DNA of 6,427 nt from a virus (lineage: Duplodnaviria > Heunggongvirae > Uroviricota > Caudoviricetes): IMG/VR virus record IMGVR_UViG_2778261577_000003, one strand, 5' to 3'. Below are positions 1-6,427 of this stretch, piece after piece (the first letter of the stretch is position 1; each line of letters begins with the position of its first letter). Made by a program: the position numbers and the translations under genes. The notes under the pieces were generated by a model. It was not told the DNA's origin. It saw nothing but the letters and a program-made list of their open reading frames with translations, and searched no databases.

Positions 1-276
1 TTACCGACTGCGGCCTGAGTTTTTTAAGTGACGTAAAATCGTGTTGAGGCCAACGCCCATAATGCGGGCTGTTGCCCGGCATCCAACGCCATTCATGGCC
101 ATATCAATGATTTTCTGGTGCGTACCGGGTTGAGAAGCGGTGTAAGTGAACTGCAGTTGCCATGTTTTACGGCAGTGAGAGCAGAGATAGCGCTGATGTC
201 CGGCGGTGCTTTTGCCGTTACGCACCACCCCGTCAGTAGCTGAACAGGAGGGACAGCTGATAGAAACAGAAGCCAC
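1..276 (-). CDS. insA: IS1 transposase regulatory protein InsA
   Basis: The ORF-track translation [35 protein letters not shown]...LKNSGRSR is recognisable as IS1 InsA, with the N-terminal Cys-rich zinc-finger region. The stop codon is at 1..3 (TTA on the + strand). Confidence 0.93.
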
Positions 277-308
277 TGGAGCACCTCAAAAACACCATCA
301 TACACTAA

Positions 309-331
309 ATCAGTAAGTTGGCAGCATCACC
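309..331 (-). repeat. IS1 terminal inverted repeat (insA-proximal end, IRL)
   Basis: A 23-bp stretch matches the IS1 end sequence read on the minus strand, and is immediately followed by non-IS sequence. Confidence 0.75.
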
Positions 332-332
332 C

Positions 333-419
333 CTGACCACAAAAACATTCATTACTGACCGCATGATTAAAGTCTTCCTCGGTCGTGATGGTTTACCTGT
401 AAAGGCGGAGTCATGGTGA
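333..419 (+). pseudogene. 3' remnant of a prophage ORF truncated by the IS1 insertion; kilR-like by synteny with K-12 Rac, sequence identity not verified
   Basis: The reading frame is open from the IS1 junction to the TGA at 417..419, and no start codon for the original gene remains. Its stop overlaps the ydaE ATG (TGATG), as expected for a translationally coupled upstream gene. In K-12 Rac the gene upstream of ydaE is kilR. Confidence 0.35.
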
Positions 420-589
420 TGACTAAGAAAATAAAATGTGCTTACCACCTTTGCAAAAAAGACGTTGAAGAAAGCAAAGCTATTGAAAGAATGCTTCACT
501 TCATGCACGGGATTTTATCAAAAGACGAACCGAGAAAATATTGCAGTGAAGCTTGTGCCGAAAAAGACCAGATGGCACATGAACTTTAA
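419..589 (+). CDS. ydaE: Rac prophage small Cys-rich protein YdaE (56 aa)
   Basis: Translation MTKKIKCAYHLCKKDVEESKAIERMLHFMHGILSKDEPRKYCSEACAEKDQMAHEL. GGAG at 407..410 lies 8 nt upstream of the ATG at 419. An alternative in-frame ATG at 413 has no usable SD spacing. Stop is TAA at 587..589. This ORF is below the size cutoff of the supplied ORF track. Confidence 0.75.
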   Translation: MTKKIKCAYHLCKKDVEESKAIERMLHFMHGILSKDEPRKYCSEACAEKDQMAHEL

Positions 590-663
590 TTAATTGACTA
601 TTCGAAACTGAATTTATGCCAGAAATGGCAGGTATTCGCTCAACCTTAATTAAGGAGAAAAAC

Positions 664-939
664 ATGATTACCAATTATGAAGCCACTGTTGTAACTACCG
701 ATGACATTGTTCACGAGGTGAATCTGGAAGGAAAGCGCATTGGCTACGTAATTAAAACAGAAAATAAAGAAACCCCATTCACTGTGGTTGATATCGATGG
801 TCCATCAGGCAACGTAAAAACACTTGATGAAGGTGTCAAAAAAATGTGCCTGGTGCATATCGGAAAGAATCTGCCCGCAGAAAAAAAAGCCGAATTTCTG
901 GCAACTCTAATTGCAATGAAATTAAAAGGTGAAATCTGA
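664..939 (+). CDS. racC: Rac prophage protein RacC (91 aa)
   Basis: Translation from MITNYEATVVTTDDIVHEVNLEGKRIGYVIKTENK... matches RacC as I recall it. A strong SD (AGGAG at 653..657) lies 6 nt upstream of the ATG at 664. The ORF-track start at 616 is an unsupported upstream extension. Confidence 0.85.
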   Translation: MITNYEATVVTTDDIVHEVNLEGKRIGYVIKTENKETPFTVVDIDGPSGNVKTLDEGVKKMCLVHIGKNLPAEKKAEFLATLIAMKLKGEI

Positions 940-944
940 AAGAA

Positions 945-969
945 ATAGCCTGCGTATGGCGCAGGCTAT
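945..969 (+). other. Perfect 10-bp-stem / 5-nt-loop hairpin (ATAGCCTGCG-tatgg-CGCAGGCTAT) in the racC-recE intergenic region
   Basis: Direct base-pairing check: 945-969, 946-968 ... 954-960 are all Watson-Crick. It lies 6 nt after the racC stop. No U-tract follows, so it is not a canonical intrinsic terminator. Confidence 0.45.
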
Positions 970-1040
970 GAACAGTGTGTATCCGGCAAGATCATTCACT
1001 GAACAAAACGAATTTTAATCTGAGTTGAGGTTAAAAAACA

Positions 1041-1484
1041 ATGAGCACAAAACCACTCTTCCTGTTACGGAAAGCGAAAAAATCATCCGGTGAACCTGAC
1101 GTCGTCCTGTGGGCAAGCAACGATTTTGAATCGACCTGTGCCACTCTGGACTACCTGATCGTTAAGTCAGGTAAAAAACTGAGCAGCTATTTTAAAGCTG
1201 TTGCCACGAATTTTCCTGTCGTTAATGACCTGCCCGCTGAAGGTGAGATCGATTTTACCTGGAGTGAACGCTATCAACTCAGCAAAGACTCCATGACATG
1301 GGAACTAAAACCGGGAGCAGCACCAGACAACGCTCACTATCAAGGCAATACCAACGTCAACGGCGAAGACATGACTGAGATTGAGGAGAATATGCTACTC
1401 CCAATTTCTGGCCAGGAACTGCCCATTCGTTGGCTTGCTCAACACGGCAGCGAAAAACCGGTAACGCACGTTTCACGCGACTGA
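1041..1484 (+). CDS. recE: RecE N-terminal fragment (147 aa) ending at the premature TGA
   Basis: ATG at 1041 with GAGG at 1027..1030. Translation [30 protein letters not shown]... matches the RecE N-terminus. It terminates at TGA 1482..1484. Confidence 0.7.
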
Positions 1485-1721
1485 CTCCAGGCATTACACA
1501 TTGCTCGGGCTGAAGAACTACCGGCTGTTACTGCCCTGGCTGTTTCCCACAAAACCAGCCTGCTCGACCCGCTGGAAATTCGCGAACTCCACAAACTGGT
1601 TCGTGACACTGACAAAGTTTTCCCTAATCCTGGTAATTCAAACCTGGGACTGATAACTGCTTTTTTCGAAGCATACCTGAACGCTGACTACACCGATCGA
1701 GGACTGCTGACAAAAGAGTGG

Positions 1722-3641
1722 ATGAAGGGTAATCGTGTTTCACACATCACTCGCACGGCTTCCGGTGCTAATGCTGGCGGCGGAAACCTCACCGATCGCG
1801 GCGAAGGTTTCGTACACGATCTGACGTCACTGGCGCGCGACGTAGCCACTGGCGTACTGGCCCGTTCAATGGATCTGGACATCTATAACCTTCATCCGGC
1901 ACACGCTAAACGCATTGAGGAAATTATCGCTGAAAATAAACCGCCCTTTTCTGTTTTCCGCGACAAATTCATCACCATGCCTGGCGGGCTGGATTATTCC
2001 CGCGCCATCGTGGTTGCGTCCGTAAAAGAAGCACCAATTGGGATCGAGGTCATCCCCGCGCACGTCACTGAATATCTGAACAAAGTACTGACTGAAACCG
2101 ATCATGCCAACCCTGATCCGGAAATCGTGGATATTGCCTGCGGTCGCTCCTCTGCCCCGATGCCGCAGCGAGTAACAGAAGAAGGAAAACAGGATGATGA
2201 AGAAAAACCGCAACCATCTGGAACAACGGCAGTTGAACAGGGAGAGGCTGAAACAATGGAACCGGACGCAACTGAACATCATCAGGACACGCAGCCGCTG
2301 GATGCTCAGTCACAGGTAAATTCTGTTGATGCGAAATATCAGGAACTGCGGGCAGAACTCCATGAAGCCCGGAAAAACATTCCATCAAAAAATCCTGTCG
2401 ATGACGATAAATTGCTTGCTGCATCACGTGGTGAATTTGTTGACGGAATTAGCGACCCGAACGATCCGAAATGGGTAAAGGGGATCCAGACTCGCGATTG
2501 TGTGTACCAGAACCAGCCAGAAACGGAAAAAACCAGCCCAGATATGAATCAACCTGAGCCAGTAGTGCAACAGGAACCGGAAATAGCCTGCAATGCCTGC
2601 GGCCAGACTGGCGGGGATAACTGCCCTGACTGTGGTGCGGTGATGGGCGACGCAACATACCAGGAAACATTCGATGAAGAGAGTCAGGTTGAAGCTAAGG
2701 AAAATGATCCGGAGGAAATGGAAGGCGCTGAACATCCGCACAATGAGAATGCTGGCAGCGATCCGCATCGCGATTGCAGTGATGAAACTGGCGAAGTCGC
2801 AGATCCCGTAATCGTAGAAGACATAGAGCCAGGTATTTATTACGGAATTTCGAATGAGAATTACCACGCGGGTCCCGGTATCAGTAAGTCTCAGCTCGAT
2901 GACATTGCTGATACTCCGGCACTATATTTGTGGCGTAAAAATGCCCCCGTGGACACCACAAAGACAAAAACGCTCGATTTAGGAACTGCTTTCCACTGCC
3001 GGGTACTTGAACCGGAAGAATTCAGTAACCGCTTTATCGTAGCACCTGAATTTAACCGCCGTACAAACGCCGGAAAAGAAGAAGAGAAAGCGTTTCTGAT
3101 GGAATGCGCAAGCACAGGAAAAACGGTTATCACTGCGGAAGAAGGCCGGAAAATTGAACTCATGTATCAAAGCGTTATGGCTTTGCCGCTGGGGCAATGG
3201 CTTGTTGAAAGCGCCGGACACGCTGAATCATCAATTTACTGGGAAGATCCTGAAACAGGAATTTTGTGTCGGTGCCGTCCGGACAAAATTATCCCTGAAT
3301 TTCACTGGATCATGGACGTGAAAACTACGGCGGATATTCAACGATTCAAAACCGCTTATTACGACTACCGCTATCACGTTCAGGATGCATTCTACAGTGA
3401 CGGTTATGAAGCACAGTTTGGAGTGCAGCCAACTTTCGTTTTTCTGGTTGCCAGCACAACTATTGAATGCGGACGTTATCCGGTTGAAATTTTCATGATG
3501 GGCGAAGAAGCAAAACTGGCAGGTCAACAGGAATATCACCGCAATCTGCGAACCCTGTCTGACTGCCTGAATACCGATGAATGGCCAGCTATTAAGACAT
3601 TATCACTGCCCCGCTGGGCTAAGGAATATGCAAATGACTAA
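1722..3641 (+). CDS. recE: RecE C-terminal ORF (639 aa from the first internal Met after the nonsense codon); contains the acidic linker and the C-terminal 5'-3' dsDNA exonuclease domain
   Basis: Longest ORF in the window, in frame with the N-terminal fragment. Whether it is translated from the ATG at 1722 (weak SD-like AAGAG just upstream) is inference. C-terminal RecE fragments are known to retain exonuclease and recombination activity. Confidence 0.5.
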
Positions 3642-4443
3642 GCAACCACCAATCGCAAAAGCCGATCTGCAAAAAACTCAGGGAAACCGTGCACCAGCAG
3701 CAGTTAAAAATAGCGACGTGATTAGTTTTATTAACCAGCCATCAATGAAAGAGCAACTGGCAGCAGCTCTTCCACGCCATATGACGGCTGAACGTATGAT
3801 CCGTATCGCCACCACAGAAATTCGTAAAGTTCCGGCGTTAGGAAACTGTGACACTATGAGTTTTGTCAGTGCGATCGTACAGTGTTCACAGCTCGGACTT
3901 GAGCCAGGTAGCGCCCTCGGTCATGCATATTTACTGCCTTTTGGTAATAAAAACGAAAAGAGCGGTAAAAAGAACGTTCAGCTAATCATTGGCTATCGCG
4001 GCATGATTGATCTGGCTCGCCGTTCTGGTCAAATCGCCAGCCTGTCAGCCCGTGTTGTCCGTGAAGGTGACGAGTTTAGCTTCGAATTTGGCCTTGATGA
4101 AAAGTTAATACACCGCCCGGGAGAAAACGAAGATGCCCCGGTTACCCACGTCTATGCTGTCGCAAGACTGAAAGACGGAGGTACTCAGTTTGAAGTTATG
4201 ACGCGCAAACAGATTGAGCTGGTGCGCAGCCTGAGTAAAGCTGGTAATAACGGGCCGTGGGTAACTCACTGGGAAGAAATGGCAAAGAAAACGGCTATTC
4301 GTCGCCTGTTCAAATATCTGCCCGTATCAATTGAGATCCAGCGTGCAGTATCAATGGATGAAAAGGAACCACTGACAATCGATCCTGCAGATTCCACTGT
4401 ATTAACCGGGGAATACAGTGTAATCGATAATTCAGAGGAATAA
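3634..4443 (+). CDS. recT: RecT single-strand annealing protein (269 aa)
   Basis: Translation [41 protein letters not shown]...VIDNSEE matches RecT. The ATG at 3634 is preceded by AGGA at 3622..3625 and overlaps the recE stop (ATGACTAA, 8-nt overlap). The ORF-track start at 3577 lies inside recE and is rejected. Confidence 0.9.
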
Positions 4444-4451
4444 TTCAGCCT

Positions 4452-4488
4452 GGCGGTGTAATGCACCGCCAACTTGAAATATTTTTTA
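4452..4488 (+). terminator. GC-rich 7-bp-stem hairpin (GGCGGTG-taatg-CACCGCC, 4452..4470) followed 12 nt later by a T6 run (4483..4488), between recT and ralR; possible weak terminator or attenuator
   Basis: Stem pairing verified by eye. The T-tract is not directly adjacent to the stem, so terminator function is uncertain. Confidence 0.3.
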
Positions 4489-4499
4489 TGAGAAAAATT

Positions 4500-4694
4500 A
4501 TGAGATATGACAATGTTAAACCATGTCCATTTTGTGGTTGTCCATCAGTAACGGTGAAAGCCATTTCAGGATATTACCGAGCGAAGTGTAACGGATGCGA
4601 ATCCCGAACCGGTTATGGTGGAAGTGAAAAAGAAGCACTCGAAAGATGGAATAAACGAACCACTGGAAATAATAATGGAGGTGTTCATGTATAA
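4500..4694 (+). CDS. ralR: RalR / Lar restriction-alleviation protein (64 aa), also described as a type I toxin
   Basis: Translation MRYDNVKPCPFCGCPSVTVKAISGYYRAKCNGCESRTGYGGSEKEALERWNKRTTGNNNGGVHV, with a Cys-rich zinc-ribbon-like motif. Alternative in-frame starts exist at 4488 and 4461; 4500 gives the 64-aa product I recall for K-12. Confidence 0.8.
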   Translation: MRYDNVKPCPFCGCPSVTVKAISGYYRAKCNGCESRTGYGGSEKEALERWNKRTTGNNNGGVHV

Positions 4695-4896
4695 AATTAC
4701 CGCCACTATTGAAAAGGAAGGTGGCACTCCTACTAACTGGACAAGATATTCAAAATCTAAACTAACGAAATCAGAATGCGAAAAAATGCTCTCAGGTAAA
4801 AAAGAAGCAGGCGTTTCCAGAGAGCAGAAAGTAAAACTGATAAATTTTAATTGCGAGAAACTTCAGTCCTCGAGAATTGCATTGTATTCAAATTAA
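4687..4896 (+). CDS. ydaC: Rac prophage protein YdaC (69 aa)
   Basis: Translation MYKITATIEKEGGTPTNWTRYSKSKLTKSECEKMLSGKKEAGVSREQKVKLINFNCEKLQSSRIALYSN. GGAGG at 4677..4681 lies 5 nt upstream of the ATG at 4687. The start overlaps the ralR stop (ATGTATAA). Confidence 0.8.
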   Translation: MYKITATIEKEGGTPTNWTRYSKSKLTKSECEKMLSGKKEAGVSREQKVKLINFNCEKLQSSRIALYSN

Positions 4897-4907
4897 AACT
4901 TCATAGC

Positions 4908-4923
4908 TGATTATTAATAATCA
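4908..4923. promoter_or_regulatory. Perfect 16-bp palindrome TGATTATTAATAATCA upstream of xisR-intR; candidate operator or protein-binding site
   Basis: Perfect dyad symmetry read directly from the sequence. It lies in the 78-bp ydaC-xisR intergenic region, about 50 bp upstream of the xisR ATG, and overlaps AT-rich -10-like hexamers. Confidence 0.4.
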
Positions 4924-4974
4924 ACATCGGGCGTCAATTTCAGTCTAACATTGGCGCCTGCCAGAGGTGATGCG

Positions 4975-5190
4975 ATGGCACAAGTAATCTTTAATGAAGA
5001 GTGGATGGTTGAATACGGCCTGATGCTTCGCACTGGTCTGGGGGCCAGACAAATTGAAGCATACCGCCAGAACTGTTGGGTGGAGGGCTTCCACTTCAAA
5101 CGAGTATCTCCTTTAGGTAAGCCAGACAGCAAACGAGGGATTATCTGGTACAACTATCCAAAGATAAATCAGTTTATCAAAGACTCATGA
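4975..5190 (+). CDS. xisR: Rac prophage excisionase XisR (YdaQ), 71 aa
   Basis: Translation [79 protein letters not shown] at 4964..4969. It sits immediately upstream of the integrase, the typical xis-int arrangement. Confidence 0.85.
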
Positions 5191-5191
5191 T

Positions 5192-6427
5192 ATGTCTAAA
5201 TTACCAACAGGTGTCGAGATTAGAGGTAGATACATTCGCATCTGGTTCATGTTTCGAGGAAAACGATGTCGGGAAACATTAAAAGGCTGGGAGATTACAA
5301 ACAGTAATATTAAAAAGGCCGGAAATTTAAGAGCGCTGATAGTTCATGAAATAAACTCCGGTGAATTTGAGTATTTAAGACGTTTTCCCCAGTCCAGCAC
5401 TGGGGCAAAAATGGTGACAACGAGAGTCATAAAAACGTTCGGAGAGCTTTGTGATATCTGGACAAAAATTAAAGAGACAGAGTTAACAACAAACACAATG
5501 AAGAAAACGAAATCACAATTAAAAACACTCAGAATAATAATTTGTGAAAGTACCCCGATATCACATATTCGTTATAGCGATATCTTAAACTACCGGAATG
5601 AACTGCTGCATGGAGAAACGCTTTACCTGGATAATCCAAGATCCAACAAAAAAGGAAGAACCGTGCGCACAGTTGATAACTATATCGCCCTGCTCTGTTC
5701 GCTGTTGCGTTTTGCGTATCAGTCGGGATTTATATCAACCAAACCATTTGAAGGAGTAAAAAAATTACAGCGAAACAGAATAAAGCCTGATCCGTTATCT
5801 AAAACAGAATTCAATGCATTAATGGAAAGTGAAAAAGGACAGAGCCAGAACTTGTGGAAATTTGCCGTTTACTCAGGACTTCGTCACGGGGAACTGGCAG
5901 CTCTGGCGTGGGAGGATGTGGATCTCGAAAAGGGAATAGTGAATGTCAGAAGAAACCTGACGATACTTGATATGTTCGGTCCCCCAAAAACAAATGCCGG
6001 GATCCGAACAGTAACACTACTGCAGCCTGCTCTTGAAGCACTGAAGGAGCAATACAAACTGACCGGGCATCATCGCAAAAGCGAAATCACCTTTTATCAT
6101 CGGGAGTACGGCAGAACCGAAAAGCAAAAACTGCATTTTGTTTTCATGCCCAGGGTGTGTAACGGAAAACAAAAACCTTATTACTCGGTAAGCAGTTTGG
6201 GGGCAAGGTGGAATGCAGCAGTAAAACGTGCTGGTATTCGCCGCCGTAATCCGTACCATACGCGGCATACTTTTGCCTGCTGGCTGTTGACGGCAGGAGC
6301 GAACCCGGCATTTATAGCCAGCCAAATGGGGCATGAAACTGCGCAGATGGTGTATGAAATTTACGGTATGTGGATTGATGACATGAACGACGAACAGATA
6401 GCCATGTTGAATGCGCGGTTATCGTAG
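5192..6427 (+). CDS. intR: Rac prophage integrase IntR (tyrosine recombinase, 411 aa)
   Basis: Translation MSKLPTGVEIRGRYIRIWFMFRGKRCRETLKGW... carries tyrosine-recombinase signatures (LRHGE; HTRHTFA; C-terminal MGHETAQMVYEIYG with the probable catalytic Tyr). The ATG at 5192 follows the xisR TGA with a 1-nt gap. The TAG stop is the last codon of the window. Confidence 0.9.
   Translation: MSKLPTGVEIRGRYIRIWFMFRGKRCRETLKGWEITNSNIKKAGNLRALIVHEINSGEFEYLRRFPQSSTGAKMVTTRVIKTFGELCDIWTKIKETELTTNTMKKTKSQLKTLRIIICESTPISHIRYSDILNYRNELLHGETLYLDNPRSNKKGRTVRTVDNYIALLCSLLRFAYQSGFISTKPFEGVKKLQRNRIKPDPLSKTEFNALMESEKGQSQNLWKFAVYSGLRHGELAALAWEDVDLEKGIVNVRRNLTILDMFGPPKTNAGIRTVTLLQPALEALKEQYKLTGHHRKSEITFYHREYGRTEKQKLHFVFMPRVCNGKQKPYYSVSSLGARWNAAVKRAGIRRRNPYHTRHTFACWLLTAGANPAFIASQMGHETAQMVYEIYGMWIDDMNDEQIAMLNARLS

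Follow-up and report, generated by a model that had tools for sequence, protein, structure and literature searches.

In the Rac prophage of Escherichia coli K-12, depletion of RacR co-induces kilR, ydaE, racC, recE, recT, ralR, xisR and intR (bioRxiv 10.64898/2026.09.06.749655), and recET is fully repressed in this strain (PMC3945230). The kilR gene is kept off by transcription termination that depends on NusG, a cofactor of Rho (PMC5793797), and the toxicity of NusG repression is due to kilR (PMC5793797; see also PMC4632033). KilR toxicity requires the beta-sheet core of the protein together with a 12-residue C-terminal tail, and the protein disrupts Z-rings and MreB localisation (PMC12482147).

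Here we describe a 6,427-nt stretch of DNA (the window), taken from contig NLMO01000036.1 (46.6 kb) of the draft assembly GCA_002229045.1, in which kilR is interrupted by IS1. The window resembles the early-left region of K-12 MG1655 Rac in being collinear with it and in having the same ttcA integration site. In contrast, K-12 MG1655 has an intact kilR, a recE without a stop at codon 148 and a RecT with Ser255. Strain TUM10008 (NZ_CP135658.1) shares with the window a same-orientation IS1 (768 bp there) inside the Rac kilR, a 3' remnant of the gene joined to ydaE, and an intact ydaE-to-intR block; its kilR fragment is listed as a pseudogene, with the PGAP label 'kilR, incomplete, missing N-terminus', and both gene halves are kept. 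It differs from the window in that the insertion site lies 21 bp further downstream, with a duplication, TACTGACCG, corresponding to kilR nt 156-164, its IS1 copy has only about 96% identity where the two were compared, and recE is intact. Moreover, both IS1 junctions are seen in TUM10008, whereas the window shows the IRL side alone. IS1 hybrid promoters and sbcA-type activation of recET are also similar in arrangement, in that silent genes follow directly on an IS1 end; however, the window has no appropriately spaced -10 element, its insA reads the opposite way and its recE is nonsense-mutated. The window thus carries a real kilR::IS1 allele, which is a fresh instance of a very familiar lesion whose closest counterpart, that of TUM10008, is already annotated publicly.

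The IS1 end and the kilR remnant

Positions 1..331 were found to be, on the minus strand, the IRL-proximal 331 nt of an IS1A-type element (IS1 nt 1-331), with the outermost IRL base at 331, and matched annotated IS1A copies in complete genomes with 100% identity. The element is known here from the IRL side alone: the source contig holds only 28 nt more of IS1 before window position 1 and reaches 359 nt into the element. Its membership of the IS1 family follows from the IRL at the element end and the adjoining 91-aa insA ORF, which encodes a zinc ribbon and a helix-turn-helix; Pfam PF03811 (Zn_ribbon_InsA) and PF12759 (HTH_Tnp_IS1) were found on the identical InsA gene of the source contig/L005. 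The features on the two sides of the junction are as follows.

1..276, minus strand: insA, 91 aa, from the ORF list; it reads away from the Rac genes.
297..324, minus strand: promoter-like site CTGCCA-16-TATGAT, from the promoter scan, within the IRL and facing into IS1.
309..331, minus strand: IS1 left terminal inverted repeat GGTGATGCTGCCAACTTACTGAT, exact reverse complement, read directly.
332..419, plus strand: 3' remnant of kilR, a pseudogene fragment corresponding to kilR nt 135-222, with 0 mismatches to MG1655.
332..340, no strand assigned: CCTGACCAC, predicted right-hand copy of a 9-bp target-site duplication, as judged from comparator genomes.

Positions 309..331 correspond to the IS1 IRL; the last 12 of them, 320..331, read GGCAGCATCACC, the reverse complement of the IRL tip. 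The promoter-like site at 297..324 is consistent with the known insA promoter, an assignment based on established IS1 biology.

The MG1655 kilR gene is 222 nt long (73 codons), and its last base corresponds to window position 419 and nt 135 to position 332. The segment 332..419 was identical to kilR nt 135-222 at 88/88 nt (KilR is Pfam PF27398), and because it is identical to a named gene a chance resemblance is out. The break therefore falls between kilR nt 134 and 135, and the first 134 nt, with the start codon and approximately 45 of the 73 codons, are displaced. What is left starts at the third base of codon 45 and runs through codons 46-73 to the stop. It encodes KilR residues 46-73 without a promoter, start codon or ribosome-binding site, and its TGA at 417..419 overlaps the ydaE ATG at 419 (TGATG). 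No complete 73-codon KilR ORF with its own start was present, IS1 standing in place of codons 1-45. The only in-frame start for the remnant was a TTG at 318, inside IS1, and no clear Shine-Dalgarno sequence was seen by eye upstream of it. The preliminary description had reported an IS1 terminus at 331 adjoining an ORF without its 5' end and had suggested that the truncated gene was kilR. Both claims were borne out, with the IRL tip at 320..331, the ORF running to the TGA at 417..419, and the alignment to K-12 kilR described above.

These findings clearly show that KilR, a division inhibitor that targets FtsZ and MreB, cannot be made from the interrupted kilR copy. A second, intact kilR elsewhere in the same genome is possible. 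The empty target site, ...TTCGTAA followed directly by CCTGACCAC..., is visible in K-12 and in contig L008, an ENA metagenome contig with an intact kilR.

The Rac genes downstream of IS1

From position 332 to 6427 the window was collinear with K-12 MG1655 Rac, and 6093 of 6096 bases were identical (3 SNPs). The gene order kilR-ydaE-racC-recE-recT-ralR-rcbA-xisR-intR followed by ttcA identifies the segment as the left arm of Rac at ttcA. The genes, mapped from the K-12 annotation or compared with K-12, are as follows.

419..589, plus strand: ydaE, 56 aa, K-12 annotation mapped; Pfam PF27493.
664..939, plus strand: racC, K-12 annotation mapped.
1041..3641, plus strand: recE, which has an in-frame stop (TGA) at 1482..1484.
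3634..4443, plus strand: recT, with S255T and one silent change relative to K-12.
4500..4694, plus strand: ralR, identical to K-12.
4687..4896, plus strand: rcbA/ydaC, identical to K-12.
4693..4871, minus strand: RalA antitoxin sRNA (Rfam RF02694, 225 bits), antisense to rcbA/ydaC and adjoining ralR.
4975..5190, plus strand: xisR, identical to K-12.
5192..6427, plus strand: intR, identical to K-12.

In this arrangement IS1 separates ydaE, racC, the interrupted recE, recT, ralR, rcbA, xisR and intR from all upstream Rac DNA. The mapping of the Rac genes agrees in structure with the earlier claim that the insertion cuts the ydaE-to-intR block off from its upstream region.

A nonsense codon in recE, absent from the preliminary description, was also found. 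Codon 148 is changed from GGA to TGA (Gly148 to stop; G>T relative to MG1655), which splits the gene into ORFs of 147 aa and 639 aa in the same frame, the latter at 1722..3641 and spanning the C-terminal nuclease domain. Full-length RecE (exonuclease VIII) cannot be made. The nonsense base was also present in L005, L011 and L008, and since in L008 it lies beside an intact kilR, it is a natural allele that is independent of the IS1 event. In recT, the substitutions relative to K-12 were TTG>CTG at 4318, which is silent (Leu229), and TCT>ACT at 4396 (Ser255Thr). In exact-protein look-ups this RecT variant had no match besides GCA_002229045.1 and the Logan assembly of SRR3989766; together with the 147-aa RecE fragment, it served to trace the window to contig NLMO01000036.1.

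The spacer between racC and recE contains a hairpin at 945..969 with a perfect 11-bp stem (-21.9 kcal/mol for 935..1000, z = -2.9). The hairpin resembles a terminator on the minus strand alone and could influence read-through into recE.

Reliability of the junction and origin of the isolate

The assembly broke in the IS1 repeat, and for this reason the other IS1 end, the target duplication, the 5' half of kilR and sieB are absent from the contig. The junction lies 359 nt from a contig end that falls in a multicopy repeat, which is the circumstance in which a chimeric contig end would be suspected. However, the Logan assembly of SRR3989766, produced by a different assembler, contained the same three Rac SNPs, in recE and recT, and the same flanking chromosomal SNPs. 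The sequence of one Logan contig begins 28 nt inside IS1 and crosses the same junction into the kilR remnant and ydaE. In addition, the break falls exactly at the IS1 terminus, as transposition would give. With the junction reproduced by two assemblers and placed exactly at the terminus, an assembly artefact is extremely unlikely, and we regard the junction as real.

All three SNPs relative to K-12 Rac lie in recET, and a mutagenised K-12 laboratory derivative was therefore suspected. This was rejected, because approximately 3 kb of flanking sequence holds 8 further SNPs and a metagenome contig of unrelated origin has the recE stop too. With those 8 SNPs relative to K-12, the chromosome beside the prophage (ttcA, dbpA and beyond) indicates a natural K-12-like isolate.

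The Logan assembly of SRR3989766 splits recE into two contigs that overlap by approximately 30 nt, at about 2708..2737 of the window. This break hints at a second recE-like copy or at branching sequence in the same genome.

IS1 near kilR in other genomes

The exact junction was found in none of 5,426 complete E. coli genomes, and it was not found among GTDB species representatives. Among 1,857 complete genomes with this Rac segment, an IS1 lay no more than about 1 kb away in 13, its site varying between genomes and its orientation being the same as in the window in 8 and opposite in 5. The 8 same-orientation copies were mapped individually. In the first six strains listed below, IS1 is a simple 768-bp insertion flanked by a 9-bp duplication; in the last two it bounds a deletion or rearrangement and has no duplication.

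Strains 573 and ECZP248: IS1 in sieB.
Strain H1: IS1 in the sieB-kilR spacer.
APEC_AN-25: IS1 just upstream of the kilR start, the duplication ending 7 bp before the ATG.
TUM10008: IS1 in kilR, 21 bp downstream of the site in the window.
EEC_W5: IS1 in ydaE.
CAVP776 and ET650: IS1 adjoining racC/recE.

In CAVP776 (L021), where IS1 occupies 3197..3964, the unrelated DNA on the far side is abgT; in ET650 (L022), with IS1 at 2064..2831, the far side holds tRNA genes and lysis genes annotated essD/rrrD/rzpD. If IS1 inserted uniformly, about 10 genomes with a nearby IS1 would be expected, a rough estimate that assumes approximately 12 chromosomal copies in each genome and a span of detection of about 2.3 kb. 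An IS1 hot spot or selection at kilR was considered and dropped, as the 13 observed in 1,857 genomes were close to this expectation.

Simple insertion or rearrangement

The window would be accounted for if an IS1A-type element, with insA facing away from the Rac genes that follow, had transposed into kilR in a natural E. coli isolate whose Rac prophage resembles that of K-12. The event most likely took the form of a simple insertion that duplicated 9 bp of target and left the 5' half of kilR on the far side of IS1. With 6 of the 8 same-orientation comparators being simple 768-bp insertions with 9-bp duplications, one of them in kilR itself (TUM10008), and 2 being rearranged, we consider it likely that the duplication here is CCTGACCAC; the far junction would then read ...TTCGTAACCTGACCAC followed by GGTAATGACTCC, the IS1 IRR. 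The other possibility is that IS1 is the scar of a deletion or rearrangement that it bounds, and that the 5' half of kilR, possibly with sieB and the immunity region, is gone or moved. Adjacent deletions are known for IS1 (PMC9330008), and CAVP776 and ET650 show that an IS1 in this part of Rac can lack a target duplication and have unrelated DNA on its other side. Consistent with such a loss, none of nine predicted fusion ORFs joining the KilR N-terminus to the IS1 IRR (for duplications of 0 and 6-14 bp) was present in a collection of 15 billion proteins, and a homology search with the KilR'-IS1 fusion gave no full-length match. However, short and pseudogene ORFs are often left uncalled, so the absence of these fusions is weak evidence, and the comparators, including the one in kilR, were simple insertions in six cases out of eight. 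A rearrangement is therefore somewhat unlikely, and a simple IS1 insertion, taken together with an account of neutral decay, is as a whole the probable explanation of kilR::IS1.

Promoters and the downstream block

In K-12, a candidate for the early-left (PL-like) promoter of Rac was found between racR and ydaF, on the kilR strand (L004 MG1655 1442..1470, plus strand), approximately 1.4 kb upstream of kilR; its sequence, TTGACA-17-TATAGT, matches the sigma-70 consensus at 11/12 positions. An early-left operon would read through kilR, and a polar IS1 would now block it. IS1 insertions are generally polar. Given this polarity and the lack of an outward promoter, early-left transcription under RacR control would no longer reach the downstream block. 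As recET is already repressed and comes on only upon RacR depletion, the insertion would alter inducibility and not basal expression. The downstream block would stay silent as in K-12, save for any internal promoters, such as one that may serve the RpoS-responsive xisR, and the consequence that we infer is the uncoupling of an already silent block from its upstream promoter.

The preliminary description had proposed that expression of the whole module may depend on IS1-derived or internal promoters. The IS1-derived part is weakened, as no such promoter was predicted and the insA promoter faces away. For the internal part, xisR responds to RpoS (PMC4632033), which suggests some regulation of its own, and 'whole module' may therefore be too broad.

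A rival reading is an sbcA-like activation, in which the IS1 end would supply a promoter that switches on ydaE-racC-recET. An outward -35-like TTGGCA is present at 318..323, 8 nt from the IS1 terminus. IS1 hybrid promoters require a correctly spaced -10 element (PMC8764528, PMC9330008), however, and at spacings of 15-19 bp from TTGGCA each hexamer agreed with TATAAT at just 2-3 of its 6 positions and lacked the TAnnnT pattern (A at position 2 combined with T at position 6). The hallmark of such promoters, an outward -35 in the repeat with a flanking -10 at 16-18 bp, was thus not found. Moreover, the promoter scan gave no sigma-70-like plus-strand site in 1..1100, the minus-strand site at 297..324 being the only promoter-like site there, insA is transcribed in the opposite direction, and the premature stop at codon 148 of recE excludes full-length RecE. 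Activation of this kind is very unlikely.

The preliminary description called inactivation of kilR a plausible detoxifying (domesticating) lesion. A further rival reading is that selection favored the insertion as such a lesion, one that removed a lethal division inhibitor and uncoupled the recombination and excision genes from prophage induction. The high toxicity of KilR, which is behind the lethality of Rho/NusG impairment (PMC5793797; PMC4632033), would favor its loss, and several independent kilR lesions were found, namely the IS1 fusions P0037 and P0042, frameshifted forms and TUM10008. Against this, the genomes with a nearby IS1 (13 of 1,857) were about as many as the approximately 10 of the rough, uniform expectation, and the insertions were spread over sieB, the spacers, kilR, ydaE and racC/recE and were not focused on kilR. 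Intact KilR was also far more common, with 1,215 members in its cluster and the K-12 sequence on at least 1,000 contigs. Finally, kilR helps cells to survive nalidixic acid, azlocillin and oxidative stress (PMC3105296; PMC5793797), and because the gene has such benefits, its loss is not simply detoxification. Detoxifying domestication is possible and finds no support here in view of the insertion counts and the documented benefits of kilR; we consider selection for it unlikely. A related reading, that kilR::IS1 is adaptive and not neutral in that it removes the one Rac gene that makes Rho/NusG silencing essential, uncouples recET and xis-int from the early-left promoter under RacR control, and would lock a harmless Rac into the chromosome, is quite improbable. 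If it were true, the allele would represent a step in prophage domestication and would be a natural allele for study.

Significance of the allele

On the simple-insertion reading, kilR::IS1 and the recE nonsense codon would represent ordinary, probably neutral, decay of a cryptic prophage. The finding is an ordinary one: there is no sign of a new mechanism, and neither adaptive domestication nor altered inducibility receives support from the insertion frequencies. The isolate should lack KilR-dependent phenotypes, including the toxicity of bicyclomycin or NusG depletion, OxyS-induced growth arrest, and tolerance of nalidixic acid and azlocillin, and induction of the Rac recombination and excision genes through RacR has probably been lost. 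The allele is another natural case of the erosion of a cryptic prophage driven by insertion sequences and a data point for studies of prophage decay, and it has little importance beyond annotation.

The 'partial' KilR proteins P0048, P0052 and P0053 were considered as signs that insertion sequences often hit kilR. This reading was rejected, since the contigs of these proteins begin inside kilR without IS sequence, and they were not counted as gene disruptions. More generally, many short-read assemblies (L023-L033) break in the 5' third of kilR, near nt 55-70, and their contigs carry no IS at that end, which points to repetition or branching of this region between co-resident lambdoid prophages.
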